A stretch of DNA of 64,000 nt from an uncultured virus (IMG/VR IMGVR_UViG_3300002122_000002) (IMGVR_UViG_3300002122_000002), one strand, 5' to 3'. Positions 51-20,430 are shown, counted from the first letter of the stretch. Numbers and translations are program-made. Notes: generated by a model from the letters alone, not told the origin.

Positions 51-126
51 TGGGGTGCCAGAGGAGAATCGAACTCCCGTAATCTGGTTCACAGCCAGAC
101 GCCTGAGCCACTCGGCTACTGGCAAC
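51..126 (-). tRNA. tRNA-His(GTG) with G-1 and encoded CCA
   Basis: Anticodon arm TCTGG-CT GTG AA-CCAGA; T-loop TTCGATT; 3' CCA. Confidence 0.92.
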
Positions 127-130
127 ATGT

Positions 131-202
131 ACAAGTCCCACGTCCTGCATTTAGACGATGACCCGATGGGCCAGAGTGTCGCTCACCCATTTTGGGACCC
201 GT
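131..202 (-). ncRNA. Circularly permuted tRNA-like structure (putative)
   Basis: 10-bp closing stem ACGGGTCCCA/TGGGACTTGT encloses a T-like arm, a loop-closed acceptor-like stem TGGCCC-ATC-GGGTCA and a Glu/Gln-type D arm GTC-TAAATGCAG-GAC. Confidence 0.4.
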
Positions 203-277
203 TGATAGGCTTTGCACACAACCCCTGCCTTCTATACGATCTATAATCCTCGGGCGGGCGGTACCTATCTTGAGTCA

Positions 278-366
278 GGCGGAGAGTGAGGGAGTCGAAC
301 TCTCAATACGGGTTTCACCGTACTACACTTTTCAAGAGTGCTACACACGCCGATGTTAGACTCTCC
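278..366 (-). tRNA. tRNA-Ser(TGA)
   Basis: GGAGAGT/ACTCTCC acceptor, GCACT-CT TGA AA-AGTGT, long variable arm, G73. Confidence 0.9.
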
Positions 367-369
367 GAG

Positions 370-442
370 TACCCCGCCGTCCTATAGGTTGGCGGAGCCT
401 TGCTATAAGCCGCCCAAGATGATAGCAACAAAATGGGCGGTC
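370..442 (-). ncRNA. Pseudoknot + hairpin motif, copy A (strand assumed from tRNA operon)
   Basis: CCGCCCA/TGGGCGG crossed by TTGCTAT/ATAGCAA, followed by hairpin CTCCGCC/GGCGGGG; homologous to 2160-2243. Confidence 0.55.
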
Positions 443-443
443 A

Positions 444-517
444 GGTCGGGAATGCAGGGATCGAACCTGCTACCACACCCTTCCAAGGGGCGCATGCAAC
501 CGTTACACCTATCCCCG
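444..517 (-). tRNA. tRNA-Pro(TGG)
   Basis: CGGGGAT acceptor, CGCCC-CT TGG AA-GGGTG, TTCGATC loop. Confidence 0.92.
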
Positions 518-565
518 ATAATTGCTGTGCCGTTTTTAAAGTGGTGACACAGGTTGAGGCCACTA

Positions 566-641
566 GGTACTCTCGGTAGGGTATGATCCTACAGTCTCCG
601 AGTTAGAAGCTCGGCGCGGTATCCATTTTTGCTACGAGAGC
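566..641 (-). tRNA. tRNA-Arg(TCT), variant T-loop
   Basis: CCGAG-CT TCT AA-CTCGG; T arm GTAGG-ATCATAC-CCTAC. Confidence 0.85.
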
Positions 642-642
642 A

Positions 643-740
643 TGGTTAACTGAGCATGGAGAGAGGTCACTCCGACATAGTAGCAACCGTCTCCGCTACT
701 ACCCTCTGGCTTATGGTTTTCCCTGTCATATGCTCAGTCA
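643..740 (-). ncRNA. Rod-shaped RNA ending in ACCA (putative)
   Basis: 11-bp terminal stem TGACTGAGCAT/ATGCTCAGTTA followed by ACCA; inner stems AGAGG/CCTCT and GTAGTAGCGG/TTGCTACTAT. Confidence 0.5.
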
Positions 741-814
741 GGTACAGGACCCCCGATTCGAACGAGGAATCTACGCTTTCAGAGAGCGGCGGCTTACCGT
801 TCGCCTAGTCCTGT
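741..814 (-). tRNA. tRNA-Gln(CTG)
   Basis: ACAGGAC/GTCCTGT acceptor; CT CTG AA loop; TTCGAAT. Confidence 0.9.
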
Positions 815-933
815 ATGAGCCTGCTCGGCCCTTTTCGCAGCAATGGGCCAGTAGATTAGGCTGAAAAAGCAGACGATGAAAGCGCGCCGGGTAATCTCAC
901 ACTTTGGTACCCTGGTTTAGAGTGGGCGCGCTA

Positions 934-1015
934 GGTGGGTCCTGGTAGAGTCGAACTACCCTCGCCCGAAGGCAACTGTTTTACAGACAGCGTAGCGTCC
1001 ACCGCCGTAAGACCC
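934..1015 (-). tRNA. tRNA-Tyr(GTA)
   Basis: GCTGT-CT GTA AA-ACAGT, long variable arm GCC-TTCG-GGC. Confidence 0.88.
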
Positions 1016-1016
1016 A

Positions 1017-1091
1017 TGGTTCAATCGGCTGGATTCGGACCAACATCCTCGGGTTCAAAGCCCGGTGGCCTGCCAATTAGCCTACGATTGA
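1017..1091 (-). tRNA. tRNA-Gln(TTG)
   Basis: TCAATCG/CGATTGA acceptor; CT TTG AA; CCA encoded. Confidence 0.92.
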
Positions 1092-1095
1092 ATGT

Positions 1096-1183
1096 GCAGC
1101 CCGGCGTCCCGCTTATCAGCAATTACGGGTCTCGATACTGGCTTGCTGGCTGACGAGCATCCTTCTCAGTTCCGCCGGGTTGC
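1096..1183. ncRNA. Structured element closed by an 11-bp inverted repeat, just downstream of an internal promoter
   Basis: GCAGCCCGGCG...CGCCGGGTTGC terminal stem with internal CCCG/CGGG stem; no credible ORF. Confidence 0.35.
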
Positions 1184-1198
1184 TTTACTACTATCTTT

Positions 1199-1226
1199 AT
1201 ATTACCACATCTTTCGGTCTTGTCAA
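1199..1226 (-). promoter_or_regulatory. sigma70-type promoter inside tRNA array
   Basis: TTGACA-16 nt-TAATAT with TG extended -10. Confidence 0.65.
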
Positions 1227-1239
1227 GTACCAGTTTCTA

Positions 1240-1313
1240 GGAGCGGGTGGGGAGATTCGAACTCCCGACATTCAGTTTGGAAAACTGACGTTCTACCACT
1301 GAACTACACCAGC
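1240..1313 (-). tRNA. tRNA-Gly(TCC)
   Basis: TCAGT-TT TCC AA-ACTGA; TTCGAAT; U73. Confidence 0.92.
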
Positions 1314-1319
1314 ACGTTT

Positions 1320-1520
1320 CTATTTCAGATAAGAACTATGTCTAATTAGATATTCATGCATAGCTTTGGCAAATCCTGGGGGAGCATATTCTGATTGCAT
1401 GGCTTTTAACTCCTCATCTGAGAAGTTGTAGGTTACATGATCTGCCCCCGGATCATTGGCTTCCGTAGTAAGGATGCCGGTTAGTAATGGATCAGTAGCG
1501 ACACGTATCACTATATTCAT
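1320..1520 (-). CDS. Hypothetical protein (66 aa, MNIVIRVAT...) embedded in tRNA array
   Basis: AGGAG RBS ahead of ATG at 1520; the longer track ORF runs through tRNA-Gly and is spurious upstream. Confidence 0.6.
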   Translation of the reverse strand: MNIVIRVATDPLLTGILTTEANDPGADHVTYNFSDEELKAMQSEYAPPGFAKAMHEYLIRHSSYLK

Positions 1521-1543
1521 TTGTAACTCCTTTATAATAGACA

Positions 1544-1617
1544 GGAGCGGAGAGCGGGATTCGGACCCGCGACATTCTCGTTGGCAACGAGACATTCTAC
1601 CACTGAATTACCCCCGC
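1544..1617 (-). tRNA. tRNA-Gly(GCC)
   Basis: TCTCG-TT GCC AA-CGAGA; T-loop TCCGAAT. Confidence 0.92.
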
Positions 1618-1618
1618 A

Positions 1619-1693
1619 TGGAGCCAGTGTTGGGGCACGATCCCAACTTTCGAACTTACCAAGTTCGCGTGTCGCCGCCTACACTTCACCGGC
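1619..1693 (-). tRNA. tRNA-Thr(GGT)
   Basis: CGAAC-TT GGT AA-GTTCG; T-loop ATCGTGC; CCA. Confidence 0.85.
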
Positions 1694-1694
1694 A

Positions 1695-1770
1695 TGGAGC
1701 TTCGGGCGGGCTACGATCCCGCGGCCCCCGCTTTACGAAAGCGGTGCTCTGCCAACTGAGCTACCAAAGC
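1695..1770 (-). tRNA. tRNA-Thr(CGT)
   Basis: CCGCT-TT CGT AA-AGCGG; T-loop ATCGTAG; CCA. Confidence 0.9.
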
Positions 1771-1771
1771 A

Positions 1772-1847
1772 TGGAGCCGCCGACTGGATTCGAACCAGCT
1801 TATTCCATCTTACAAGGATGGTCCACGTCCTAACGTGGTCCGGTGGC
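1772..1847 (-). tRNA. tRNA-Thr(TGT)
   Basis: CCATC-CT TGT AA-GATGG; TTCGAAT; CCA. Confidence 0.88.
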
Positions 1848-1851
1848 ATCA

Positions 1852-1925
1852 GGTCTTACCGGGTGGATTTGCACCACCGCTACCGCCTTCGCAGGGCGGG
1901 GTCTTGTCTACTCGACTACGGCAAG
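1852..1925 (-). tRNA. tRNA-Arg(GCG)
   Basis: CTTGCCG/CGGTAAG acceptor; CCGCC-CT GCG AA-GGCGG; T-loop TGCAAAT. Confidence 0.85.
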
Positions 1926-1926
1926 A

Positions 1927-2003
1927 TGGAGTGCTCGGTCAGGTATGATCTGACAATTTCCGCGTTCGAAGCGCGGCGTCGTATCCGTTTGGACTACGAG
2001 CAC
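1927..2003 (-). tRNA. tRNA-Arg(TCG)
   Basis: GTGCTCG/CGAGCAC; CCGCG-CT TCG AA-CGCGG; T-loop ATCATAC; CCA. Confidence 0.88.
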
Positions 2004-2079
2004 ATTGGGGCCGTAACGTGGCCCGGGCGGAGGACTTTCCTTTCCCCGTTAGGGTACTCGATGCGCGCCTCAATCCGCA

Positions 2080-2155
2080 GGTGGACCTCGCGAGATTCGG
2101 ACTCGCAACCTCCCCGGTGCAAGCGGGGCGCTCTCCCAATTGGAGCTACAGGCCC
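2080..2155 (-). tRNA. tRNA-Ala(TGC)
   Basis: G3:U70 pair, TGC anticodon, T-loop TCCGAAT. Confidence 0.92.
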
Positions 2156-2159
2156 ATTT

Positions 2160-2243
2160 GCCCCACCGTGTCATTCCGGTGTCTAACACGGGGGGGACTT
2201 GCGATTAGCCACCCACAATGAATCGCAACAAGATTGGGTGGTT
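2160..2243 (-). ncRNA. Pseudoknot + hairpin motif, copy B
   Basis: CCACCCA/TGGGTGG crossed by TTGCGATT/AATCGCAA, then hairpin CCCGTGT/ACACGG; covaries with copy A. Confidence 0.55.
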
Positions 2244-2244
2244 A

Positions 2245-2319
2245 GGCACTCAGCCGTGGATTCGAACCACGAACTCCCAAGTTAACAGCTTGGTACTCTG
2301 CCAATTGAGTTAGCCGAGT
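2245..2319 (-). tRNA. tRNA-Asn(GTT)
   Basis: CCAAG-CT GTT AA-CTTGG; TTCGAAT; G73. Confidence 0.92.
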
Positions 2320-6302: not shown

Positions 6303-6686
6303 TCATTGGTTTTCCATTAGAAATTTGCGGATTAGGATTGTAAGTTCTAGGGTTGTATATCCATGTTTTACGATCATTAGTGGTATTTTATTAAGCTCCG
6401 CCCAAGCTTTTTTTTGTTGTGTTCTTTCTAGTTCTGGTTTAGTTGGGCGGCTGTCCCAGTATCCTGGTTCGAAATCGAATAGGATTAGATTGTCATTATG
6501 TTGGCCGGCTAGATCGAACCAATGCCAGCGATTTGCTATTTCATCCCATAATCCTTCGGCTGGCCATTCTCTTTGGATATCTTTAAGGCCTGCTTGAAAT
6601 GCTGCTACTGTTAGTTGTAGGAGTTCTCGTCGGGGAAATTCTCTCATTCTATTGTGGTGTATATGGCTAGGGGTTGTTTTGGTCAT
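6303..6686 (-). CDS. Hypothetical protein, possibly restriction-endonuclease-like fold
   Basis: REW...FDLA...ILFDFE.GYW...KKAWA...IPLMIV resembles DUF559/PD-(D/E)XK pattern. Confidence 0.45.
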   Translation of the reverse strand: MTKTTPSHIHHNRMREFPRRELLQLTVAAFQAGLKDIQREWPAEGLWDEIANRWHWFDLAGQHNDNLILFDFEPGYWDSRPTKPELERTQQKKAWAELNKIPLMIVKHGYTTLELTILIRKFLMENQ

Positions 6687-7084
6687 GATTTGTATACATG
6701 TTTTATGTAAAGTATGTTTTTATTGTGAGAATTGTGGTTTATGAAAGAGCCAGTTAGTTTTTGCCATTTTTGTTTTATTAAACTATCTTTAATGTTTGTT
6801 TGCCATTGTGCAGCTAAATAGATTATAGCTGATTTTCTTTTTATTTTGGTTATTTCATATATTATTTTGAAGGCCAGTTCTTTATCTTTTTCTGTACTGG
6901 CAAAAAAATATAGTTCAGATGCAATGAATGTGCCACAAGTATTAGGAAAACTTTGGAGCATTATTTGGAAAATTTTTTGTTGATTTTTGAAAATGGTGTA
7001 TTTATTTCTATATGATTGAATAGTTGTGTTTTTTAGGTTTAATTTATTTTTTATAGCTAAAATTTGTTGATCTGTTAATGACAT
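6683..7084 (-). CDS. Hypothetical protein (possible degenerate GNAT-like fold)
   Basis: Long ORF in island; FPNTCG motif and terminal W..LTGSFINHNS.N...LY pattern; fold is a guess. Confidence 0.5.
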   Translation of the reverse strand: MSLTDQQILAIKNKLNLKNTTIQSYRNKYTIFKNQQKIFQIMLQSFPNTCGTFIASELYFFASTEKDKELAFKIIYEITKIKRKSAIIYLAAQWQTNIKDSLIKQKWQKLTGSFINHNSHNKNILYIKHVYKS

Positions 7085-7151
7085 TTAATACCCCCGCCTA
7101 CGCCGTTTTTCATGTCTTCAATTAGTATTTCTATTGTTTCTTGGTCTGTGC

Positions 7152-7802
7152 TCATATTGGCAACCTGAATAGATATTTGATTAGGTTGGGAGCTTCTGCA
7201 AATTCACGTATGTCTTCAGGATGACATTGTACAGCTCTTACTTTGTCTTGTAGATAGTCTATTTTTGTATCTGATTCTATTCCTTCTATTACTTCGGTAA
7301 GTGGATCAAATAGAGTTGCTTTTAATTCAGTTCCTATTTCTCGGATGGCTTGGTGATGATAACTATTGACTTCGAATCTGAGTTCTTTTATATATTTGGT
7401 GATTTCTGAGTTTGGGAATGGGGTGACATCATGTCTTATTTCGTGTCCTTTTTTGATTGCGTTTAGGTCTTGATGAAGAGTTCCATTGAAGATTGTATTG
7501 AGGAATTGATGGCCGCGACATATTCCCACATATTTGGTTCTTTCATTTCTCATGTATTGTAGTGCTATGGTTCTTTCTATGAGGTCTCTTTGGAGATTGT
7601 AGTGAGTATACCATTCTGGACGTTCTCCGTATAGGTATGGAGTTACGTCTGCGCCGCCATCGAATATGATGAGGTCTATGTTTCTATTGATTTTGCTGTG
7701 ATGTGAGATTCTGGTTATTTGTAGATCATTAATGAATGGTTTGAGTAATTTTTGCCATCGGGTTCGGGGTATCATTCCTGTATCGGTTATTCCTATTAAC
7801 AT
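7152..7802 (-). CDS. Class I glutamine amidotransferase / peptidase C26 (gamma-glutamyl hydrolase-like)
   Basis: GGADV, GICRGHQ, NSYHHQA, VQCHPE triad motifs. Confidence 0.93.
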   Translation of the reverse strand: MLIGITDTGMIPRTRWQKLLKPFINDLQITRISHHSKINRNIDLIIFDGGADVTPYLYGERPEWYTHYNLQRDLIERTIALQYMRNERTKYVGICRGHQFLNTIFNGTLHQDLNAIKKGHEIRHDVTPFPNSEITKYIKELRFEVNSYHHQAIREIGTELKATLFDPLTEVIEGIESDTKIDYLQDKVRAVQCHPEDIREFAEAPNLIKYLFRLPI

Positions 7803-8531
7803 TTAATATACTCCTGGGTAAAGTATGTTTAGTATTGCTTTGTAGGCGTAGTCGTATCCTATTGATTCTCTTATTTGGTGATTTTTTCTATAGTGTTGCA
7901 TTGCGTTTATTGTTGTCTTTTTGTTTAATTTCTTGTTAGGTTTACCAAAGATTGAGATGATGTTTTTGAAATATTCATCGGTGACTTCTGGGTGTCTGCT
8001 TAATCCACTATAGATGGCGTGAGAACTCCAACCTTCTTTATTAAAGGTGTATAAATCTTTTACGATTGTGACTATATTTGTTCGTTTACTAGTGGTAGGT
8101 AATTTTTCTAGTTTACGTATGTATTCAAAATCTATACTTCTTAGTAATACTCCGATTATGATGAATCCTATTTCTTCTAAGTTTTTGTCTATATCTTCGT
8201 TTATTGAATGGATTTCTACAAGGATGTAGTCTGAATTTAGATTTGTGTAGTTAATTGTGAATGTGTTTTTGAATATTTTTTGTAGGCTTTTTAGGGTTGT
8301 AAAGTATGCTATTTTTGTTTTTGCAATTTTCTTTAATAGGTATACCATGTTATGCTTGTCTTGCAATACACTTTTGAGTCCCGCAAAACATGCGAGTTGA
8401 CCTAATGTGTCTATTGAGTGGCCGTAAATTACAGAATAAGATATTCGATATTTGTCCACTTCAATCATTTCTTTTAGATGTGTATTATTTAGGAGTTGCT
8501 TTTTATATTCTTTTTTGTCCATGTTAGACAC
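7803..8531 (-). CDS. Hypothetical protein
   Basis: 242-aa ORF in AT-rich DNA, tightly coupled to neighbours. Confidence 0.7.
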   Translation of the reverse strand: MSNMDKKEYKKQLLNNTHLKEMIEVDKYRISYSVIYGHSIDTLGQLACFAGLKSVLQDKHNMVYLLKKIAKTKIAYFTTLKSLQKIFKNTFTINYTNLNSDYILVEIHSINEDIDKNLEEIGFIIIGVLLRSIDFEYIRKLEKLPTTSKRTNIVTIVKDLYTFNKEGWSSHAIYSGLSRHPEVTDEYFKNIISIFGKPNKKLNKKTTINAMQHYRKNHQIRESIGYDYAYKAILNILYPGVY

Positions 8532-9460
8532 CTTTGTAGTAGAGTTGTTGCTATAGTTTTATTTAGTGTTCGGATTGTTTTGTGCATTAATGGTATATCT
8601 TTTTCAAAGTGGGTGATGAATTTATCTCCCATGTCTTTTTCAATTACTGTAGCTGCAATGTCTAGTAAATGAAGAAGATTGTTTGTCATGTTTGGATAAT
8701 TTGTCCAAGAATTGGAAAGTGCTCTGTATTCTATTCCATATGTTTTTGGTTTTTCTTTGTAGAATTGCAATCTTATTCTACCTGGTTTTCCATAGTAGTT
8801 TAGTCTGAACTTTTCTAGCTTTCTAGTTTGGGTAGGTTTGGCGAATGATACGTTTCCTAATCCAGCTAGGAAGTCAAATACTATAGATGCTTTAGCCCAG
8901 TTATCTAGATAGATTTCGGGATTTTTTGTTGGTGCTTGGATGTGGATATGGCCGCCACCATAACGATATTTATGTGTTTCTACGTTTAATGTGTGTTTAT
9001 TTTCTGGATCATCTAGACCTAGTTCTATGTATTTATAAGGAAATTCATCGGGATCGCAACCGAAGATTACGCAACTTCGAAAGTCTTCATTTCTTTTCTT
9101 CCAGTATTTGTTTAGGTTGAAAAAGCCTACTGGAAAAGCTGTGGTTGCTTCTAAATTGAATTGTGAAAGGAAACTATTGAGTTCAATTTTTGCAAGAGCA
9201 ATTCTTGATAAGAATGTTGCTGAATCGTTTGTTGGATTCATTTGAAGTTCTATTGCTGCACCATCTTCTGACCATTGAAATTCTTCTGTTTTGATTAGTA
9301 CATTTTTACCTTTTATGGTTTCGTAGGTTGCTCCGAAGTCATGTACTAGTGCGATTGGAGGAATTATGTTTGGAATTAATCCTAGTTTTTCATCTTTTAT
9401 GAATTTGTCGAAGATGAATGCTTCTGGGTCTGTTCCAAAGATATGGTTTAGGTTATTCAC
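8489..9460 (-). CDS. phiEco32-like COOH-NH2 ligase type 2
   Basis: GTDPE, EDGAAIE, FGCDPD, RYGGGHIH, YGKPGRIR, YGIEYRALSNSW motifs. Confidence 0.88.
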   Translation of the reverse strand: MNNLNHIFGTDPEAFIFDKFIKDEKLGLIPNIIPPIALVHDFGATYETIKGKNVLIKTEEFQWSEDGAAIELQMNPTNDSATFLSRIALAKIELNSFLSQFNLEATTAFPVGFFNLNKYWKKRNEDFRSCVIFGCDPDEFPYKYIELGLDDPENKHTLNVETHKYRYGGGHIHIQAPTKNPEIYLDNWAKASIVFDFLAGLGNVSFAKPTQTRKLEKFRLNYYGKPGRIRLQFYKEKPKTYGIEYRALSNSWTNYPNMTNNLLHLLDIAATVIEKDMGDKFITHFEKDIPLMHKTIRTLNKTIATTLLQRCLTWTKKNIKSNS

Positions 9461-9869
9461 TTCGTTTCCAGTTTAGATCGTTTAAAGTTACTTTTACGAT
9501 TACTGTTTCTTCTTTCATTTTGTGTTTTTTCTTTATGTCATCTGGAGTTGTGTTAGATTTTTCTTGTACGAGATTATTCCAAGGTCGATCAGGAAATAGG
9601 AATATTTCGGCGTCAGATGCCTTTATTACTTTGTCATTTGTATTTGACCAGATGTATATTTCGTCTATTGATTTTACTTTTCTGCATGAATCACATCTAT
9701 AACTTATAATTTCTATAAGTGGATTTATGGCTGTTGTTCCATAGGCTTGTAGTTTTAGTTCGGCGGGGTTATTTTCAGATAGTATAAGTCTTACTTGTGA
9801 GTTTAGATTTTTAAGATTGATTTTTATGGATAGTGTGTGGTGACATTTATCGCAGATTAAGTTTATCAT
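9453..9869 (-). CDS. Zn-ribbon-containing hypothetical protein
   Basis: CDKC ... CDSC pair. Confidence 0.65.
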   Translation of the reverse strand: MINLICDKCHHTLSIKINLKNLNSQVRLILSENNPAELKLQAYGTTAINPLIEIISYRCDSCRKVKSIDEIYIWSNTNDKVIKASDAEIFLFPDRPWNNLVQEKSNTTPDDIKKKHKMKEETVIVKVTLNDLNWKRSE

Positions 9870-9872
9870 TAT

Positions 9873-11060
9873 TTATGCTCCTTCAAGAAGAAGGACTTGT
9901 CCTTTGATTTTATCAGACAATTTTTGTTCGTAGTCATAGCATAGATTGACTTTTTCAAATGTTGGTTGTTCTTCTTCTAGAAATTCGGAGACTATATTTT
10001 TTTCATTGGTGCTTAATGTTACATCATCTTCTAGTACTAACCATAGTTCTTCTTCATCTATGTAGGCGTACTTGAAATCTTTTGGTGTTAGGTTGATGAT
10101 ATTGTCTTTCATTTTTAATGTTATTTCACAATCGGGTACTACTAGTTCTGTAGCTACTAATGCTTCTATTGNTTCATCTGCGGATAAGTCCTTGCTTAGT
10201 AGTTTTGATAATGGCTTTATGTATGTTGTTAGATGAGCGAATTTGTCTGTTGAGATAGTTTTGTGTATGGTTAGTGTCTTGTCTGGTGTTGTTGTAGTTT
10301 CTTTTTGGGGTATGGTGGGATTGGAGTTAACTGCTGCAAATAATTTTATTAGTTTCTTGGTAGAGATGTCTTTTATGTATTTTTCATTAAAGGTTGTGGG
10401 TACATGTAGTAGTAGGTTTTTGTCTTTTAGTGATTTGTACATATATTCGACATTTGAAATTATAGATAGATTAATATTTAAGTTGCTTTCCAGAATGTTC
10501 ATCATTAGTACTAGACCGTTTATGGTTATTTCTTCATGAGTTTTGGTTTGGGTTACTGGGATATCTTTGTCTGCATATTTGTCTAGTATTAACAGGATTG
10601 TAGCGGGAGTTAAATAGGGTTTGTAGATTTGTATAAGTTCATTTCCGATAGTGATTAGAAATCCCCTGTGATCAGATTGTTTTGTTATGGCTTGTGTTAA
10701 TGTAGCTAATGTAAGTGGTTTCAGGCTGTNAGTTAGTGTTGAAGTAGCCATCCATTTTGAGTTGAAGCCATTTTTTATTTTGTATGCTATTGGTTCTATG
10801 GAGGTATTGAAAAGTATTTTCTCCATTGTTGCTATGTTTCTTATTGTGAAGTCTTTGATTTTGTTTAGTTCTAATTTGCTTAGTGGAATTTTTGATTGGA
10901 TCACAATTTCGTTTTTGTCGAATGAACTTGCTATGGGATATTCTAGGCTATGAGTTGAGTCGATTTTACAATCGCCCCATTTTTCTAATGAATGGATTAC
11001 GCCATTGAATTCATTTTCTGGCGGATTTACTAATGTTTGTAGGGATATGGTAGGTTGCAT
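9873..11060 (-). CDS. Hypothetical protein
   Basis: 395-aa ORF in AT-rich DNA, operon-coupled. Confidence 0.7.
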   Translation of the reverse strand: MQPTISLQTLVNPPENEFNGVIHSLEKWGDCKIDSTHSLEYPIASSFDKNEIVIQSKIPLSKLELNKIKDFTIRNIATMEKILFNTSIEPIAYKIKNGFNSKWMATSTLTXSLKPLTLATLTQAITKQSDHRGFLITIGNELIQIYKPYLTPATILLILDKYADKDIPVTQTKTHEEITINGLVLMMNILESNLNINLSIISNVEYMYKSLKDKNLLLHVPTTFNEKYIKDISTKKLIKLFAAVNSNPTIPQKETTTTPDKTLTIHKTISTDKFAHLTTYIKPLSKLLSKDLSADEXIEALVATELVVPDCEITLKMKDNIINLTPKDFKYAYIDEEELWLVLEDDVTLSTNEKNIVSEFLEEEQPTFEKVNLCYDYEQKLSDKIKGQVLLLEGA

Positions 11061-11061
11061 T

Positions 11062-11832
11062 TTATATTACCTGATTTAAGTGTTGAGCGTATAGTTCTAG
11101 AGTATTTGCGTTAAGGCCTGGTGCTGTGTTGATTTCCCAGATGATGTATTTTTTGTGTTCGTTTGACCATGCCATATCGAATGCGCCGAATCCTAGATTT
11201 ATTTGTTCTGCTATGTCATGTACTAGTGTTTTTGCTTGTTTGAATCTTTCTTCGTCATTTTCTGGTTTGATGCTGTAGTGCCAGCCAAGTCTGGCTGTTC
11301 TTATGGGTATTTCTGGTTTTTCATTTTGTGGGTGTTGCTTTAGGAATATTCTAATTATATTTTTATTTATATAATGTATTCTAATTTCATATTCAGTTGG
11401 AAAGAATTCTGTCCAGTATTCGTGATTGAATTCGTTATCGTATAAGTAGTCTGGATTGTAGGCAATTAGTATGTCGTTTCCTGCTCTGTGATATTTATTT
11501 CTTAGTAGTACTGGATAGTCCTTAGGATAAGTTAGATTATGTTCTATATTGATGTCGTTGTATATAGGACTAAGTATATTGTTGTTTTGGCAAAAATTTG
11601 AAAACGCCAAGCTGTTTGAGCAAAGTTGTATTACGGAGGTGGAGTTGAAGTTTGTATCTTGTTTGTGTGGTACATGGGAGTTTCCGTATCTTATTTTGAT
11701 TGGTAATCTTTTTGATAATCTCGCAATTGTTATGTCGTTCTTTATTGGTCTTAGGTTTAAATGCTTGGCTAGGGCTTTTGCTGAAATGAATGATTGTTCG
11801 TTGAAGACCAATAGCCCTTTGTAGTTATTCAT
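11062..11832 (-). CDS. ATP-grasp ligase (RimK/YheC-D-like, phiEco32 type)
   Basis: H.AG.DI loop, EYEIRIH, GFGAFD, WEINTAPGL (ExNxxPG). Confidence 0.88.
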   Translation of the reverse strand: MNNYKGLLVFNEQSFISAKALAKHLNLRPIKNDITIARLSKRLPIKIRYGNSHVPHKQDTNFNSTSVIQLCSNSLAFSNFCQNNNILSPIYNDINIEHNLTYPKDYPVLLRNKYHRAGNDILIAYNPDYLYDNEFNHEYWTEFFPTEYEIRIHYINKNIIRIFLKQHPQNEKPEIPIRTARLGWHYSIKPENDEERFKQAKTLVHDIAEQINLGFGAFDMAWSNEHKKYIIWEINTAPGLNANTLELYAQHLNQVI

Positions 11833-11833
11833 T

Positions 11834-13003
11834 TTATAGTGGGTATGATTTTTGTAGTTTCTTTAATGTGTTGTTGCTATTTAGAGTGTAAGGGAACTCT
11901 ATGTTTTTTGCTTGGTAGAGTTTTCTTTTGTCTGTTTTTTTGGTTAGAGCAATCCAAGTTTCAGTTTTGTTTTTATTGTAGTATTGTTTGTCTAGATATT
12001 CTAGGAATTGTTGAAGTTGATGGATTTCTGTTTCATCTAGTATGAAAATGTTTTTGCCGAGGCAAACTTCTGAGATTACTTGTAGTTCGGTATATGAGAT
12101 GTTAAGTTTGGCTAGCAAAGAGATTATTGGTTTATTGTCTTTTTGGTAATAATAAGTTGGTTGTTGTCGGTGGAATATGGTTACTGCGGTTTGTTTGTTT
12201 TCTGCTTTCTTTGTGGGGATTTCTTCAATGATTTCTGGGTATGCGTATGATCCTATTTTGTAGTTTAATATTTTTAAATCTGGGATTTTTTCTATTTCAT
12301 ATGTGATTTTGGTTTCATCTGCTAGGTCTAAGAAGCTTTCGATGATGCGTGCGATATAGTTTAGTTCGAATTCACCAGTGTTTATAATGATTCCTATAGG
12401 TTCTTTTTGATGATAGAAGGTGCAGCTATTTAGAGTTTTCTTGTCATCTTTTACTATGAATACTTGATTTTTTACTCGTTTATCTATTAGCATTAGAGCA
12501 TAAGTTCCATACCAATGATCTAAGGTTTTAAGTATGTGTTCTTTGGTTAGTGGCGGGTTTTGTTCAACGAAATGTTCTAGTGTATTTAAGAAGTTTCTGC
12601 TATCTGTGTTGTTTACATTTATTAGGTGTTGTAGTTCTTTATTTTCTTTATCGAATTTATTGATTTCTAGTGTTCCATTATGTATCTGGATTAAGTTTCC
12701 ATTGATTACTGGATGAGAATGTATAGGATCGTTTTTGGGCTGTCCTGGGCTACAGGCTCTTACATGATATAATCCGTTTATGTTTTTGTTGGGTTTTAGG
12801 AGTTGTGTTTTATTATCTGTCCACCAGTTTTGTGCACTTTCTTTTGTTTTAATAATGTTATCTAAATTAGAGAAGCAGACATATCCAAAACCATCGTTGT
12901 TGGCGAAGGTGGATATTCCAACTGTGTTGATTTCAGTTAATGGCCTGATTATCAGTTTAGCCAGGCGTTGATCTTTGAATTCAATGAGAGTTAGTTGGCA
13001 CAT
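11834..13003 (-). CDS. Class II (Ntn) glutamine amidotransferase
   Basis: N-terminal Met-Cys, NNDGFG, HVRA, HP, HNGT, TDS motifs. Confidence 0.9.
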   Translation of the reverse strand: MCQLTLIEFKDQRLAKLIIRPLTEINTVGISTFANNDGFGYVCFSNLDNIIKTKESAQNWWTDNKTQLLKPNKNINGLYHVRACSPGQPKNDPIHSHPVINGNLIQIHNGTLEINKFDKENKELQHLINVNNTDSRNFLNTLEHFVEQNPPLTKEHILKTLDHWYGTYALMLIDKRVKNQVFIVKDDKKTLNSCTFYHQKEPIGIIINTGEFELNYIARIIESFLDLADETKITYEIEKIPDLKILNYKIGSYAYPEIIEEIPTKKAENKQTAVTIFHRQQPTYYYQKDNKPIISLLAKLNISYTELQVISEVCLGKNIFILDETEIHQLQQFLEYLDKQYYNKNKTETWIALTKKTDKRKLYQAKNIEFPYTLNSNNTLKKLQKSYPL

Positions 13004-14166
13004 TATTGTTCGTCGTCTATGTCTGGATTTTCGTTTAGAAATTTTTCTACGTCATTTTCATGATCTGGGTCGTTGTTTCTTTCTGCATTTCTTACATCAA
13101 TTATTTTTGGTTCTACAATTTTTGTTTTCTTTGGTAGTGGAGTTGGTGCATATATTTCTGGGTCAAGTCTAGTTGGTTCTTCTAAATGGGAATACATCCA
13201 TTTGTTGTCAAAAATGGGTGTTGGAGATGTTTCCCATATTTCTATCAGTGTATTTAGAGTTGCTTCGTCTAGGTTTAGTGTTTCTATTCGATATATGAAT
13301 TCTCTTGTTGATATTGTTTTGTTGTCGGCTAATGGTAATGGATCAATAAGTTGGATGTCTGATGTGCTAAAGGCTCTTTTTACTATTGCTTTACAGAAGT
13401 TTGTCCAAGCTATGATATATCTGGGGTTTAGTGTTTTGTTGGCAGTTCTGAATTCTAAGGAGCCTTGAGTTAAGATTGGATAAAAATTTACACTCATGTA
13501 TCTGGGTGTAATGTATTTGGCTCCGTTTTCTGCTAAGTGATAGGCATTTCCGTATCTTGTAAAGAATTGCTGTATTGAGGTTGATTCAAGTAGGTCTTTT
13601 GGATTTAGAATTGGGTAATTTATGGTTCGTATATTTATTACTGGAGGACCATTTCCTAGATATGGTCTGCAGTAGGCATATTGATTTTGCTCGCCGCGTT
13701 GGCGTCTGCCCATCCCACCTAATCTGAATAGAATTGCTTCATATTCTAGTGTTAGTTTTAGGAGGTTTAAGATTACATATAGTGGGGCTTCTCGAGATAG
13801 ATTTATATGAACGTGGAAGCTTGCTCTAGGTGTGTCTTCTATTTCTCCATATTCTTTAAGTATGGAGCATAGTTTGTGAATTTCAAGAATCCAATCTGGT
13901 GAAATTGTATCTATGATTGGAGAAGCTAGTTCTCCACCAATGACTATTTTATTTGTTAAGTTTTCAAGTAGTTGTCTTGCTTTTTTGGTATCTAGTGTTA
14001 TTTCATGGTTTCCTATTGCGAAGATTGGTGTTTCACATGAAGCGTCATGTCCTAGTTTATAATTTCTTAGGTTAGTTCGTATTCTAGATATGAATCTAGG
14101 ATCGGTTCTGTTTATGTTCATGAATTCCATTTCAATGCCGACGCTATCGATTATTTGTTTAGCCAT
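13003..14166 (-). CDS. Putative amidoligase (glutamine synthetase-like COOH-NH2 ligase, Amidoligase_2 type)
   Basis: VGIEME, HDAS, GELASP, SFHVH, RY..VN, GSLEFR motifs. Confidence 0.88.
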   Translation of the reverse strand: MAKQIIDSVGIEMEFMNINRTDPRFISRIRTNLRNYKLGHDASCETPIFAIGNHEITLDTKKARQLLENLTNKIVIGGELASPIIDTISPDWILEIHKLCSILKEYGEIEDTPRASFHVHINLSREAPLYVILNLLKLTLEYEAILFRLGGMGRRQRGEQNQYAYCRPYLGNGPPVINIRTINYPILNPKDLLESTSIQQFFTRYGNAYHLAENGAKYITPRYMSVNFYPILTQGSLEFRTANKTLNPRYIIAWTNFCKAIVKRAFSTSDIQLIDPLPLADNKTISTREFIYRIETLNLDEATLNTLIEIWETSPTPIFDNKWMYSHLEEPTRLDPEIYAPTPLPKKTKIVEPKIIDVRNAERNNDPDHENDVEKFLNENPDIDDEQ

Positions 14167-14431
14167 GGGTGCATTTCATGCAGATGAGTATTGGGAGGCC
14201 ATGTGGGCAATTTGGGTGTGTTAGTTCATTAGGGCAAATTGTGCATAGATCGAGGGGTATACCATGTTCGCAGTCGTCTAGTTTGGCTATGTCTTCTATT
14301 ATGGCTTTTAGTCGGTTATTGTTGTTTGGTGTATCACATTCATAGAGTACGTCATTATCGTCTAGATTGTATTCGAATCCAAATAATTGCATTATTTTTT
14401 TATTGTTGCGACGAGTTTCTATAAAGTTCAT
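14159..14431 (-). CDS. Small Cys/His-repeat protein
   Basis: CEHG...CTIC and CPHG...CMKC tandem repeats. Confidence 0.6.
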   Translation of the reverse strand: MNFIETRRNNKKIMQLFGFEYNLDDNDVLYECDTPNNNNRLKAIIEDIAKLDDCEHGIPLDLCTICPNELTHPNCPHGLPILICMKCTHG

Positions 14432-14465
14432 TTTAGAAAGGGAAGTGGTTTTGTTTTTTTGTTAG

Positions 14466-14681
14466 TTAAAAATTTGCATGAGCCCATATTAAATTACAAA
14501 TATGTGAGTCAAATCTATTTGTAGGGATTTTATAGGGATATTCCATTCCAGCAATTGCACTTAAACAAAACCATGCTTCAGATTCTATAAATGCTTCTCT
14601 ATTATGACCTTCTGGATGTGTTAATATTAATGTAGAATCTGTAGGACCTTCTTTACCTAGAGAGATTGTCCAATTAGGCAT
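14466..14681 (-). CDS. Hypothetical protein
   Basis: 71-aa ORF in AT-rich DNA. Confidence 0.5.
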   Translation of the reverse strand: MPNWTISLGKEGPTDSTLILTHPEGHNREAFIESEAWFCLSAIAGMEYPYKIPTNRFDSHICNLIWAHANF

Positions 14682-14726
14682 TTTTTTTCTTTTTTGGTTA
14701 TTTTAGGTGTCTTTTTATGTTTTTTA

Positions 14727-14801
14727 GGTAGACCAGGATGGAATTGAACCATCTGTAAGACGGTTATAAGCCGCCTGCCGCGCCCGTTTGGCTTCTGGTC
14801 T
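14727..14801 (-). tRNA. tRNA-Ile(TAT), solitary
   Basis: AGACCAG/CTGGTCT acceptor; GCC-AAACGGGCGC-GGC D arm; GGCGG-CT TAT AA-CCGTC; GATGG-TTCAATT-CCATC; A73, CC. Confidence 0.88.
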
Positions 14802-15075
14802 GTGGTTGTTCTTTAAATAGTTTATCTGCGGCTGCTTGTTTATCTGCTTCAGATGCAAGCATTTCGCACATGGAACAAATGCCGGCGTGAATTACTCGGA
14901 TATTGTCGATTTTTGCTCCATTTTCTATTTTGTCTGTGACTAGGAGTATTACGTTGGTTGCCTTGTTTTTCATGCAATGAAAGCAGCCTAATGTGCCTGC
15001 GGCGATTCTTTCTTGTGCAAGTTCAATGCCTTTTAGTATTTCATTTAAGGCATCTTCTTCGGATACGAGTGTCAT
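14764..15075 (-). CDS. Hypothetical protein (CxxC...CxxC); 3' end overlaps tRNA-Ile
   Basis: CFHC and CSMC; stop codon TAA lies in the tRNA anticodon loop. Confidence 0.6.
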   Translation of the reverse strand: MTLVSEEDALNEILKGIELAQERIAAGTLGCFHCMKNKATNVILLVTDKIENGAKIDNIRVIHAGICSMCEMLASEADKQAAADKLFKEQPQTRSQTGAAGGL

Positions 15076-15076
15076 G

Positions 15077-15289
15077 TTATTCAGCGTTTAGGTCTATTGC
15101 GTGAGCGTAATCTCGAGTTGTATGAAATATTAGTGGGTTGCCATTTAATACTTCTGATGTGTGGCTGTCAGGTTGTTCAGATTCTTCGGCTCCACATTTT
15201 GGGCATTTAAGTCTTAGGTTTTTTGAGTGAATGTAAGCATTTTCGCATTCACAGTCCCAAAATAGGTCGTTGGTAAATGGTTGTGTCAT
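15077..15289 (-). CDS. Zn-ribbon hypothetical protein
   Basis: WDCEC..YIH...CPKCG..QPDS. Confidence 0.65.
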   Translation of the reverse strand: MTQPFTNDLFWDCECENAYIHSKNLRLKCPKCGAEESEQPDSHTSEVLNGNPLIFHTTRDYAHAIDLNAE

Positions 15290-15540
15290 TAGATTCCTTG
15301 CCAGTGGGCCGTTTTTCTGAATAGCGCCCAGAGTAGTTTTATTCTGCTTGGATAGAGATCAGTTACTAGCCAGTAGCCCATAGAATGTTGAGCTGCGAAC
15401 CATCGGCCATCATAGATTTGTATGATTCCTGTTCTTAGTGGTTTGAGGTCTTCGAGGAATCCGGCTTGGATTAGTAGTGTTTGTTCTGCTACTGAAGGTG
15501 ATTTTGGGAATTGTTTGTGTTTGTAGAATGAGTAATTCAT
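15289..15540 (-). CDS. Hypothetical protein
   Basis: Coupled ORF, start taken at MNYSF. Confidence 0.55.
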   Translation of the reverse strand: MNYSFYKHKQFPKSPSVAEQTLLIQAGFLEDLKPLRTGIIQIYDGRWFAAQHSMGYWLVTDLYPSRIKLLWALFRKTAHWQGI

Positions 15541-15651
15541 TTTGATAGGGCGTAGTAAATTAGCCCGGCGCTCCATATTAGGGTTAGTAACCACGGGTTT
15601 GTGGTGACGATGAAATAGAAGATGATAGCGGGGATTGTTGCCCAGATTATG

Positions 15652-16026
15652 TTAGCTATCAGTGTTATCATTGTCTTTGGCATATAGTTCTGGCCACCAT
15701 TGAGATAATGGAGTGTAGGCTCTTCCACCTACTGGGTGGTATGTTCTTGGTGCTAGTTCTGGTGTTGGTTGTATTAATCTTGGTGGCATGCAGATGGTAC
15801 ATACTCGTTCACTCTCGCCGGGTCCTGGCCGAAATTCTGATTTACATAGGGTACATTGAGTTATACCTTCTGTAATTAATCGTTGAGTCCAGTAGCTTTT
15901 AAGTTCATCTGGATTCAATAGGTCTATGATTGGTGTGTTTTCTCTCTTGGTTAGTGCTATACCAATTAGACCAAGTATGATGGCGCTGAACGCGCCGATG
16001 TAGAAAACTATGTAAGCTGTGCTCAT
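15652..16026 (-). CDS. Membrane-anchored Zn-finger hypothetical protein
   Basis: N-terminal TM helix; CTLC...CTIC. Confidence 0.6.
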   Translation of the reverse strand: MSTAYIVFYIGAFSAIILGLIGIALTKRENTPIIDLLNPDELKSYWTQRLITEGITQCTLCKSEFRPGPGESERVCTICMPPRLIQPTPELAPRTYHPVGGRAYTPLSQWWPELYAKDNDNTDS

Positions 16027-16127
16027 TACCAGACGATCTTGCTGGCAATTACGATTAATCCCAGCATGGTGAAGACTAGCAGCCAGATGCCGATGGCGAT
16101 GCGTGCTTCGAATGTCATGTTGTTCTC

Positions 16128-16883
16128 CTAGTTGCTTAGGTTGGCAAAGATTACCAGTCGTTGTGCCCAGGTATTGGTGATTGGATTATATCCGCGGCAG
16201 GTGATTAGCATTAGATCGAAGTCTGCCGCGCGTCCGATCAGTTCGACTTCGGTGGGATCGGCGATGATATATTCGATGGTGGTGTACCAAGCTCCATTGA
16301 ATTGGAACTCAAGTCCTTCCCACAACATCCACCATTGTCCAGCCGGCCAATCGCTTTGGTTGTGACCTGCCCATACGTAGCCGGGTACGGTTAGTTGCCA
16401 AGGTTCTCCGTTCATAATTTCGCCTTGGCTTACAAATCCTGCTTTTGGTAGTTCTGTATCTGTTGGAGTTGGTGAAGGAAGACTTTCTTCGGTAGGAGTT
16501 GGGGTTGGATCAAATTCATCAGTAGGAGTAGGAGTTGGGTCATCTACCGGGGTTTCAGTAGGTGTTGGTTCGTCGGTTGGGATTGGGGTTGCGGTTTCTT
16601 CTGGTTCAGGAATGAAATAGGCCCAGTGGCTTAGGCCGCAGGTGCCTTCTGGTTGAGGCCATGATTCGAATAGGCCGCCTTCGCAGCCTTGGCTGTTGGA
16701 GCTGCCGGCTTTGAAGCAGTATTCAGTTGCTCCATCTACAGGGTATAGACTGAGATCATCGCTGTCGATTTTGGTCCAACCTTCTGATTGTGGACAGGTA
16801 TCTTGTCCATTGGCTCGGGCTACGAGTAGTGGAGTCAGAAGTGCGGGAATACAGAAGATTAGGGGTAGAATATAACGCTTCAC
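16128..16883 (-). CDS. Secreted protein with PT-rich linker, LPKAG motif and C-terminal sortase domain
   Basis: Signal peptide; AGH...LMLITC...RLVIFA = sortase His/Cys/Arg triad. Confidence 0.72.
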   Translation of the reverse strand: MKRYILPLIFCIPALLTPLLVARANGQDTCPQSEGWTKIDSDDLSLYPVDGATEYCFKAGSSNSQGCEGGLFESWPQPEGTCGLSHWAYFIPEPEETATPIPTDEPTPTETPVDDPTPTPTDEFDPTPTPTEESLPSPTPTDTELPKAGFVSQGEIMNGEPWQLTVPGYVWAGHNQSDWPAGQWWMLWEGLEFQFNGAWYTTIEYIIADPTEVELIGRAADFDLMLITCRGYNPITNTWAQRLVIFANLSN

Positions 16884-17185
16884 TTTGGTTTTGTCCTTTC
16901 GGGATTGGGGATTGGTCCAGCACCATTATGGCTGCAGGTTGGATTGTCTTTGATGCAGAGTAGGAAGTCTAGATAGTCAGGGTCAATGTAGTTATCAGCC
17001 GCTGGGCCACACTGGTATTGTGACCATCGGCTATTACTGAAGTTTCCTGTGCCAATAAGTACTTGATCTTCTTGGCATTTGGGTATTGGTCTAAAATTTA
17101 GAAAGAAAAAGGTTAGGATTGTTATTAGTATTATTGATGTAGTCCAGAGTAGTAGGATTTCTAGTAGGATTTCTTTTAATTTCAT
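16880..17185 (-). CDS. Membrane protein
   Basis: Hydrophobic N-terminal helix followed by Cys-containing domain. Confidence 0.55.
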   Translation of the reverse strand: MKLKEILLEILLLWTTSIILITILTFFFLNFRPIPKCQEDQVLIGTGNFSNSRWSQYQCGPAADNYIDPDYLDFLLCIKDNPTCSHNGAGPIPNPERTKPK

Positions 17186-17332
17186 TAGGTTAGTCCTGCG
17201 AATAGCCAGATGGCAAGGAATGCAAGTGCCAAGATAAAGACTTCAAAGATGAAAGATTTGGGTGGTGTCCACATGTGTCTGACTAGTTTTATTATAATCC
17301 AGAAGTCAAGGATTGTTAGGAATGTAATTATA

Positions 17333-17569
17333 TTATTTATTTTCATTATCCCAAATAATTTCATCTAGTATAGCAAGAGCACTAATAAATTCATTTGCAC
17401 TATTTGATTCTACGTCATACATATTTCGATTTACATTCAACACCATATCTAAGTCTTCAATCTTAGATACTAATTCTACTAATGCTTCCCAAACTATAAC
17501 AGGAACTTTTTTAGCATTTGGGTCTTTTGTATTAATATTGTAGAGTCGTTGAGTAATTTTTGGGGCCAT
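17333..17569 (-). CDS. Hypothetical protein
   Basis: 78-aa ORF with AGGA RBS. Confidence 0.55.
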   Translation of the reverse strand: MAPKITQRLYNINTKDPNAKKVPVIVWEALVELVSKIEDLDMVLNVNRNMYDVESNSANEFISALAILDEIIWDNENK

Positions 17570-17861
17570 ACAATTTCCTGTTTTCTAATAATTATTGGGT
17601 AAGTTTTTTGTATTGGCAACCGGGCCCGCTATACGTTTTTGGATGGGATATGTTGCGGGCCCGGGTGCGGGGGTGTTACCGGGCTTTTCTGCCAGCGTTT
17701 TGCCCGGACCTAGCCTATGAGGTGCTGGTGCTAGTTGGTACCTGCACCACGAAAGCCCCTGGCAGATGTAAGTATCTGGGGGGCCTTAGTGGTGGTCGGG
17801 ATGTCGGTTCGCACCACAATAGCCACTTGTTTAAGGTGGCTATTGTAGAAGGAAGACTTAC

Positions 17862-18215
17862 TTAGGCTTCGGCTCGACCGAGGAACTGGACTCGGCGGGC
17901 TCTGACTTCGAACTTGGAGCCTGGACTGCCATCGTTGCGCTCGAAGATGCGGGGATTGCCGGCGTCATCCGGGATCAAGGACCCCTGAATGAGAACCTGC
18001 CGCCCGGTCTTGAGGTACTCGACGCAAGCTTCTGCTTGAGCGCCCCAGACTGCAACGTCGAACCAGATCGTTTCCTTGACTTCTACTTCGCCTTCGTCAA
18101 CCTGACGGGTGTAGCGACGATTGTCTGCTACACTTAGGTTCGTGACCTTGGTTCCGTTGTGTTCCCGAAGTACCGGGTCGTTTCCAAGGTTTCCTACGAT
18201 CGTAACTTCCTGCAT
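17862..18215 (-). CDS. ssb: Single-stranded DNA-binding protein (no acidic tail)
   Basis: VTIVGNLGNDP, WFDVAVWGAQAE..YLKTG..VLIQG, VQFL; AAGGAG RBS. Confidence 0.95.
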   Translation of the reverse strand: MQEVTIVGNLGNDPVLREHNGTKVTNLSVADNRRYTRQVDEGEVEVKETIWFDVAVWGAQAEACVEYLKTGRQVLIQGSLIPDDAGNPRIFERNDGSPGSKFEVRARRVQFLGRAEA

Positions 18216-18226
18216 GATGTGTCTCC

Positions 18227-18441
18227 TTGTCTCACACGCCCGGGAAGTGCCGGGTCACTTAGCTTGGAAATGTATTCTATAAGGTATTTTTCATTGCAAA
18301 ATTTGTTGTTGTTGTATATTATACCCTTTCTAGATGATTGATAGCCANAGTTAGGACANTCAAAATGGTCAGGGTAGATTTTTTGCATGTTTTTTTGAAT
18401 GTGTTTTCTTGTCTCACATGTCCGGGAAGTGCTGGGTCATT
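18227..18441 (-). repeat. Two copies (18227-18260, 18409-18441) of a ~33-bp leader element
   Basis: ttgtctcacacgcccgggaagtgccgggtca vs ttgtctcacatgtccgggaagtgctgggtca. Confidence 0.8.
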
Positions 18442-18443
18442 GT

Positions 18444-18537
18444 TTCAAGACTAACGCCTGGGAGTCAGTGTTTATCAGGATGTATTGCTACATCTGCTAA
18501 TGAAACATGCTGACTTATCCCAGGGGTTAGTCTTGAA
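18444..18537. other. Long interrupted hairpin
   Basis: TTCAAGACTAAC/GTTAGTCTTGAA, CCTGGGA/TCCCAGG, GTCAG/CTGAC, TGTTT/AAACA, GATGTA/TACATC nested stems. Confidence 0.7.
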
Positions 18538-18700
18538 GGGGTTTTCTTTCCTTTGAATTAGGTTTCGGGGCTCTTTTTTCGAGCCCGACGACGCCGACAG
18601 GCGGAGGGCGAGAAAAAAGGCCTGGGGTTTTCTTTCTTTTTCTTTGTTTTGATCTTCCAAAAATATAGCCCCGACGCCAAGGCGACGCCGGGGCTAGAAG

Positions 18701-18925: not shown

Positions 18926-18934
18926 GGTATCTCC

Positions 18935-20402: not shown

Positions 20403-20430
20403 CACATATACACACATACACACACACACA
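20403..20430 (+). repeat. (CA)n-like microsatellite
   Basis: cacatatacacacatacacacacacaca. Confidence 0.8.

Follow-up and report, generated by a model that had tools for sequence, protein, structure and literature searches.

The codon AUA is read in most bacteria by a single minor tRNA. Bacteria are generally without a tRNA carrying the UAU anticodon and use instead a CAU tRNA modified by TilS (PMC8007984, excerpt). A UAU tRNA that reads AUA without lysidine has been described in Mycoplasma mobile, where it depends on a co-adapted IleRS (Arg865) and on a ribosome that rejects AUG; the IleRS of E. coli charges the UAU tRNA poorly, and on E. coli ribosomes such a tRNA misreads AUG (PMC3575796, abstract). 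In the LEE island of E. coli, an extra AUA-reading tRNA has been suggested to raise the expression of AUA-rich genes (PMC3920477, in a passage citing unpublished data). Phages are part of the picture too: a putative lysidine-modified tRNA-Ile is ascribed to T4-like phages (PMC1524935, excerpt), and 10 tRNA-Ile genes, 7 of them CAU and 1 UAU, are given for prophages of Latilactobacillus curvatus, which use ATA more than their hosts do (PMC10688831, excerpt). The main text of Morgado and Vicente 2019 (PMC6409571) gives no Ile anticodon counts. Phage tRNA-Ile(UAU) genes are already known, for example in Streptomyces phage Daubenski (Samistivirus; one record examined of 43 matching Streptomyces phage records), whose tRNA-Ile is read as tat by ARAGORN and annotated as "codon recognized: AUA". 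Amidoligase, GATase and ATP-grasp genes occur in many phages as well, with a proposed role in cell-wall or peptide modification (PMC10580990, in a passage citing Iyer 2009). No report of a tRNA attached to an amidoligase cassette was found, in a literature search that was not designed to exclude one.

The locus described here combines the two elements. It lies in a stretch of 64,000 nucleotides, hereafter the window, from an uncultured virus (IMG/VR IMGVR_UViG_3300002122_000002), and its features, with positions counted from the first letter of the window, are as follows.

14727..14801, minus strand: tRNA-Ile(UAU) (ARAGORN, Rfam, fold, compensatory pairs against the related locus L022, identical copies in L003 and L006)
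14764..15075, minus strand: ORF of 103 aa with two CxxC motifs (no Pfam or PHROG match)
15077..15289, minus strand: small phrog_18262-like gene (PHROG; homologs in L005, L016 and L022)
14466-14681 and 14159-14431, minus strand: two small ORFs separating tRNA and amidoligase (without a Pfam or PHROG family match)
13003..14166, minus strand: Amidoligase_2 enzyme (Pfam PF12224, 1.8e-11; PHROG amidoligase; homologs)
6303..13003, minus strand: rest of the AT-rich cassette (Pfam, PHROG, synteny, codon usage)
11062-11832, minus strand: RimK-like ATP-grasp (phrog_2599)
8489-9460, minus strand: COOH-NH2 ligase (phrog_3815)
7152-7802, minus strand: Peptidase_C26/GATase (PF07722/PF00117)
within 6303..13003, minus strand: cassette proteins without an assigned family (389 aa, 395 aa, 138 aa, 242 aa and two small ORFs)
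51..2319, minus strand: 16 tRNAs of the phage array (ARAGORN), which runs past the left edge of the window

With its Amidoligase_2, Peptidase_C26/GATase, COOH-NH2 ligase and RimK-like ATP-grasp genes, the cassette resembles the Iyer-type phage cassettes as the cited passage presents them. The tRNA is phage-borne like the tRNA-Ile annotated in the tRNA cluster of T4, but it has a UAU anticodon and heads an operon at a distance from the array, whereas ARAGORN reads the T4 anticodon as CAT; the T4 tRNA-Ile therefore needs host TilS, and this annotated T4 gene is rejected as a UAU case. As in the excerpted account of the L. curvatus prophages, a phage-borne AUA tRNA goes together with overuse of ATA, although the prophage genes are mostly CAU. 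The LEE case, as given in the passage cited, concerns CAU genes that are TilS-modified and lie on a bacterial chromosome, while the window has a UAU gene inside a phage operon. The Daubenski tRNA, at 72% identity the best match to the window tRNA outside L022, lies among scattered tRNAs and small ORFs with no adjoining amidoligase cassette, and has T8 where the window tRNA has A8. With M. mobile the window shares a gene-encoded UAU, but the phage tRNA relies on whatever its host provides, and the poor charging by E. coli IleRS and the misreading of AUG set out in that abstract imply that its function depends on that host.

The gene at 14727-14801 is identified by ARAGORN as a tRNA-Ile with anticodon tat, and the region, searched alone against Rfam RF00005, scores 50.0 bits (E 5.6e-10) where the gathering threshold is 29. 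A gathering run over the whole region missed this tRNA together with 5 of the 16 array tRNAs, and since array tRNAs were missed too, the cause lies in the speed filters of that run. The fold has an energy of -27.2 kcal/mol (z = -3.5); the acceptor stem AGACCAG/CUGGUCU gives A1-U72 and is followed by the discriminator A73, and the encoded 3' end is CC, then T. The anticodon loop is CUUAUAA, which we take to be ordinary-looking, and its UAU, from position 34 onward, is encoded by the gene. A73, C4-G69, C29-G41, A37 and A38 correspond to identity elements recognised by E. coli IleRS. The complete cloverleaf with TAT and A73 that a sequence-only reading had described is thus found again by ARAGORN, by the Rfam score and by direct reading of the sequence. 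Position 8, a nearly universal U in tRNAs, is A in this gene (window 14794); the same A8 is present in the L022 homolog (8933) and in an Ile(UAU) gene of the array in another phage, G002 (L058 2103-2176), and four array tRNAs likewise have A or G at position 8. The exact 42-nt core of the tRNA had no match in viral contigs, nor did looser D-arm/anticodon-loop patterns, and a tRNA pattern search of bacterial genomes was likewise without a match.

Relatives of the locus were collected through the amidoligase, for which 49 homologs were found in a protein collection; a profile built from 19 of them recovered 2 viral and 23 metagenomic loci. L003 and L006 represent the phage of the window itself, with an identical tRNA. 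A distant relative is L022 which, with L023, forms one phage of 118.5 kb whose amidoligase is 56% identical to that of the window, and in which a tRNA-Ile(tat) lies at 8926-9001, co-oriented with the amidoligase and 985 nt upstream of it, at the exact point where GC drops from 0.41-0.48 to 0.27-0.33. The co-occurrence of tRNA-Ile(UAU) and island that the sequence-only reading had proposed to look for is therefore present in L022/L023, in the same position and orientation. The D arm, with its A8, is the same in both tRNAs, as are the anticodon loop and A73. Of their 20 pairs 6 are compensatory, against 0-1 such pairs in slid controls, and 39 of 40 cells are paired in these two distinct sequences. 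Judged by the sequences, 14727-14801 is a real tRNA whose cloverleaf is under selection.

The 5' half of the tRNA also encodes the last 12 codons and the TAA of ORF 14764-15075, the stop being made of anticodon base 36, A37 and A38, in agreement with the earlier description of an ORF that overlaps the tRNA and stops in its anticodon loop. In L022, a non-homologous ORF (8677-8964) stops at the same TAA of the tRNA. In both phages, the upstream ORF enters the tRNA by 38-39 nt, and the two ORFs have no homology except in the tail that the tRNA encodes.

The cassette occupies a low-GC stretch from about 6,000 to 15,000, with a GC content of 0.32-0.37 as compared with about 0.48 elsewhere in the window. 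Every island gene is on the minus strand, so that the tRNA is upstream of the island genes and co-oriented with them. Amidoligase_2 occurs in one operon with GATase/C26 and with further ATP-dependent ligases (Pfam, PHROG), which identifies a phage amidoligase cassette, and the gene order of the cassette is common to the window, L001, L002, L014, L020 and L022. Homologs of the phrog_18262-like gene at 15077-15289 immediately precede the amidoligase in L005 and L016, and in L022 the homolog is found at the opposite end of the island; as this cassette gene lies upstream of the tRNA in the window, the tRNA is inside the cassette head. The earlier placement of the tRNA at the upstream border of an AT-rich ligase island consequently stands as to its upstream position and orientation, but not as to the border itself. 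Between the cassette and the tRNA array, nucleoside deoxyribosyltransferase-like and metallophosphoesterase-like genes were observed at 2781-3278 and 4217-4888; in the late region, 33063-41141 is a single ORF of 2,692 aa; and the window contains 23 isolated N bases between 10172 and 55723, two of which (10172, 10730) are in the cassette. In public phage collections no match was obtained for 14300-15300 by blastn or for the amidoligase by tblastn, and a terminase search gave one match at 21%; the backbone gene at 16128-16883 had no match in viral contigs, and the cassette profile had none in bacterial genomes.

The surroundings of the tRNA have changed between the window and L022. An extra minus-strand ORF follows the tRNA in L022, and the phrog_18262-like gene has a different place, as stated above. 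These comparisons of gene order indicate that local gene turnover has taken place around the tRNA, which has yet kept its place at the cassette head in L022. The backbone genes of L022 are syntenic with those of the window at 31-63% identity, and the island proteins are 29-61% identical; since island and backbone have diverged to about the same extent, the island goes back to the split of window and L022, and its low GC has been maintained rather than recently imported. The description of the cassette as a foreign operon is for this reason doubtful. Just downstream of the cassette, L022 has an FtsH-like protein (AAA + Peptidase_M41) at 18836-20539, with no counterpart seen at the matching position in the window.

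Codon usage was assessed on gene calls made as greedy longest ORFs, with no trained gene finder, after six spurious ORFs over the tRNA array had been dropped. On these calls, the 11 island genes contain 159 ATA in 2,629 codons (60.5 per 1000) and the other 81 genes 259 in 16,594 (15.6 per 1000; Fisher p = 2e-36), so that the AUA enrichment on which the sequence-only reading depended is borne out by the counts. The island holds 38% of the ATA codons in 13.7% of the codons of the window, and 259 of 418 ATA codons (62%) are outside it. ATA makes up 55% of the Ile codons in the island (25 of 44 in the amidoligase) and 21% in the late genes, and AUA is the third most used codon of the cassette; in L022, the share in the island is 68%. 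The Peptidase_C26 gene starts ATG TTA ATA GGA ATA ACC GAT ACA GGA ATG ATA, as quoted before, and the Ile codons of the major capsid gene (42150-43154) are, again as had been read, all ATC or ATT (ATA 0, ATT 2, ATC 9).

The enrichment is strong but it is not peculiar to Ile, which qualifies the earlier idea of a cassette matched to this one codon. Third-position composition predicts an ATA share of Ile of 0.519 in the island where 0.552 is observed, so that no Ile-specific adaptation is needed, while elsewhere in the window ATA is mildly avoided (0.269 observed vs 0.326 expected); moreover, AAA is more enriched in the island (5.15x) than ATA is (3.87x). In the island, A accounts for 49.5% and G for 4.5% of third positions, and four-fold sites in the cassette are A 0.60, C 0.19, T 0.19 and G 0.02 (1.9%). 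NNG codons in general are close to absent from the island: GAG, CAG, CCG, GGG, GCG, CTG, TTG and GTG each account for 2-4% of their codon family, and ACG, TCG and CGG do not occur there. The bias is graded: the island shows it most, the adjoining minus-strand early genes less (G3 0.12), and the late genes not at all (G3 0.235). The A+C-rich, G-poor coding strand was noted in the minus-strand genes of the window from 6303 to 20554 and in L022 from 9500 to 18300. The four-fold sites of the L022 island are similar to those of the window (A 0.59, G 0.03), whereas the same cassette in other phages is A/T-symmetric (A about 0.46, T about 0.42). The cassette skew runs counter to the direction expected from transcription-associated deamination of the non-template strand; replication asymmetry or selection may be the cause. 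Most cassette genes (6303-14681) have no Shine-Dalgarno-like motif and have leaders with few G, and most late genes (27208-56855) have GAGG or AGGAG before the start codon. The most unusual feature of the locus is not the tRNA but the G-starved, A+C-rich coding strand of the cassette with its leaders devoid of Shine-Dalgarno motifs, kept in the L022 lineage and not in the cassettes of other phages.

The tRNA is one of many in this phage. ARAGORN finds 17 in the window, all on the minus strand, of which 16 form the array at 51-2319, at a distance of 12,408 bases from the solitary gene, in accordance with the 12 kb given earlier. A near-identical record, G001, has 82% of sampled words in common with the window, and over the array stretch of the window the two are identical in 2269 of 2269 bases. 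The array of G001 (L060 = G001:C1:38500-44500, 519-5034) has 32 tRNAs, for every amino acid but Trp, and the solitary tRNA-Ile(UAU) is also present there, 12.4 kb from the array; the set of the phage therefore amounts to about 33 tRNAs (about 32 in the array plus the solitary one), many with U34 anticodons. Arg-GCG instead of Arg-ACG, and paired U34/C34 tRNAs for Lys, Glu and Gln, were also observed in the G001 array.

In this nearest record the array includes an Ile(GAU), two untyped CAU tRNAs and a second UAU-type gene. The latter (L060 4458-4550, outside the window) is 93 nt long and is typed as Ile(UAU) by both ARAGORN and Rfam, with 37.9 bits in the latter, but a C-C mismatch adjoins its anticodon loop, and its extra arm, of about 20 nt, holds a CUGAUAA loop, a would-be GAU anticodon. 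The gene may be an unusual tRNA or a duplicate in decay. The tRNA at the cassette head can accordingly be called solitary by its position, as the sequence-only reading had it, but not as the only gene of its kind, given the Ile(GAU), the second UAU-type gene and the two CAU genes of the array. In sequence it is distant from every array tRNA, the best match among them being 66% as against 75% to the L022 tRNA. For each of the 12 sense codons most enriched in the island, the phage has a tRNA that is cognate or reads it by wobble; with a nearly complete tRNA set, however, this coverage does not single out the island, and the set includes a Thr-CGU whose codon is never used there.

The occurrence of the tRNA was compared with codon class across loci, the classes being taken from the amidoligase segments of 24 loci. 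An A+C type, ATA-dominant, with A3 about 0.5, C3 0.16-0.27 and G3 0.04-0.06, includes the window type, the L022 type, L008, L009, L011, L015 and L018; an A+T type (15 loci), with A3 about 0.37 and T3 about 0.46, is ATT-dominant except in L021, where 14 of 22 Ile codons are ATA. If a lineage is regarded as testable when it has at least 1 kb of upstream sequence (L008, L009, L011, L015 and L018 have less), an adjacent tRNA is found in 2 of 2 A+C lineages and in 0 of 9 A+T lineages (L001, L002=L013, L004, L005, L007, L016, L020, L021 and L024). The tree does not separate the four deep A+C lineages, which are 53-62% identical to one another, from an A+T clade made up of L004, L005 and L007 (joint group, support 86/96), so that the association between tRNA and codon class could rest on a single event; since the window and L022 are related, one evolutionary event may underlie the linkage, and one the codon class. 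Adjacency is not required in any case, because in G002, which is of A+T type, the Ile(tat) is within an array of 27 tRNAs that precedes the cassette by 10 kb. The contig of G003 has the array at its end and the island at its start, so that the array adjoins the cassette across the ends; no Ile tRNA was seen in the parts of this record scanned, which is 87% complete.

The reading that we favour, with a probability of about 60%, is that the solitary gene works as an AUA decoder, is transcribed together with the cassette and supplies a codon in heavy use there, as part of a match of tRNAs to codons that extends over the whole phage. The tRNA is predicted to be functional and would read AUA without host TilS. 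It is probably on the same leftward transcript as the cassette, as it is on the same strand, lies inside the cassette head and is separated from the rest by no strong terminator; the only convincing terminator candidate upstream of tRNA and cassette is a strong terminator-like hairpin at 18696-18666 on the minus strand (14 pairs, 9 of them G-C, then a T run), and promoter and terminator scans, informative only for this hairpin, gave counts close to those of shuffled sequence (43 vs 40.3 and 14 vs 14.2). From this transcript the tRNA would be cut by host RNase P and by 3' processing, its final A would be added by the CCA enzyme, and a host enzyme would charge it with Ile. We infer that its likely job is codon supply to the cassette, whose expression would benefit. 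It is, in any case, a facet of the general fit between the U34 tRNAs of the phage and the A-ending codons of the cassette, and not a private channel for Ile only, so that the interpretation given in the sequence-only reading is supported in part.

The position of the tRNA might instead be incidental, the gene being an array member split off by insertion of the cassette or by rearrangement, and serving all phage genes. In agreement with this, the tRNA and the array bracket the cassette, and other phages with the cassette have their entire array shortly upstream of it (adjoining it in G003, and 10 kb away, Ile(tat) included, in G002); the 62% of ATA codons that fall outside the island, and a tRNA set that extends to all amino acids but Trp and even to a Thr-CGU of no use to the island, also fit a general service. 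However, the tRNA held the cassette head in L022 despite turnover on both sides, it is unlike the array tRNAs and closer to that of L022, and the array already has an Ile-UAU-type slot, so that the outlying tRNA is an extra copy; on balance we consider a merely incidental position rather unlikely. A function in counter-defence is conceivable, in which the tRNA set would replace host tRNAs cleaved or depleted in infection and codon matching would be secondary. The phage, of roughly 59-71 kb, has some 33 tRNAs, which suggest broad independence from the host tRNA pool, several of them deviate at conserved positions (the A8 or G8 described above), and the hypothesis is in print (PMC10264068, abstract). 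Still, no nuclease specific for tRNA-Ile was identified here, the separate place of the tRNA at the cassette head is left unexplained, and the anticodon loop has, as far as we can judge, the look of an ordinary one; replacement of damaged host tRNAs as the primary role is improbable.

The sharing of a stop codon between tRNA and ORF, in turn, evokes a signal for RNA processing, by which excision of the tRNA would separate an upstream early mRNA from the cassette mRNA; as the overlapping ORF would lose its stop codon on excision, a given transcript would provide the tRNA or an uncut message for the ORF, but not both. That non-homologous upstream ORFs stop at the anticodon-loop TAA in both window and L022 would suit such a role, but the stop is set by the sequence of the tRNA itself, so that any ORF entering in that frame ends there, and with two cases chance is possible; the cloverleaf, the anticodon and A73 are, besides, all conserved, as for a decoding tRNA, and we regard a processing function as very unlikely. 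Bacterial genomic islands insert at the 3' ends of tRNA genes, and the low-GC block does start just 3' of the tRNA in both window and L022, as it would if the cassette were a mobile island inserted at that end. Against such a scar speak the divergence of the island, which equals that of the backbone, and the cassette gene homolog upstream of the tRNA. A second copy of the 3' 27 nt of the tRNA was not found in the window with up to 3 mismatches, nor were direct repeats involving the tRNA, and no island ORF matched an integrase or recombinase in Pfam or PHROG; without att repeat and integrase, we have rejected integration, which would be the least expected of these origins.

Returning to the co-transcribed AUA decoder, a stronger version of it may be put forward tentatively, although we think it unlikely to hold: the cassette and its tRNA could form a maintained translational channel, in which the cassette would be made efficiently only after the U34 tRNAs of the phage have accumulated, and in which low GC would have been selected for timing or insulation and would not be a foreign trace. 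This proposal derives from the G-starved, A-ending codon usage (2% G at four-fold sites), from the leaders without Shine-Dalgarno motifs and from the retention of the AUA decoder across a divergence of about 50% protein identity.

If the link between tRNA and cassette is functional, it would be a clear natural example of a tRNA gene that travels with the operon most in need of it, one that uses the rare lysidine-independent mode of reading AUA, with a bearing on how phages tune or time the expression of blocks of auxiliary genes; one would then also have to ask how an ordinary host charges a UAU tRNA and how misreading of AUG is avoided there. As it stands, it is one more well-documented case of codon compensation, within a fairly ordinary carriage of tRNAs by a phage, and what is more curious is the unusual composition of the cassette, which has been conserved across so deep a divergence.

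Two further RNA genes were noted at the other loci. The array of G003 (L059 4468-4784) includes a tmRNA gene for which ARAGORN gives the tag peptide AKDFITSLVTKITGAFAPVPQLAFA, and L025, a contig whose amidoligase match is weak and partial, has at 7853-7927 a tRNA that ARAGORN reports as Pyl, with anticodon cta, and that may be an amber suppressor.
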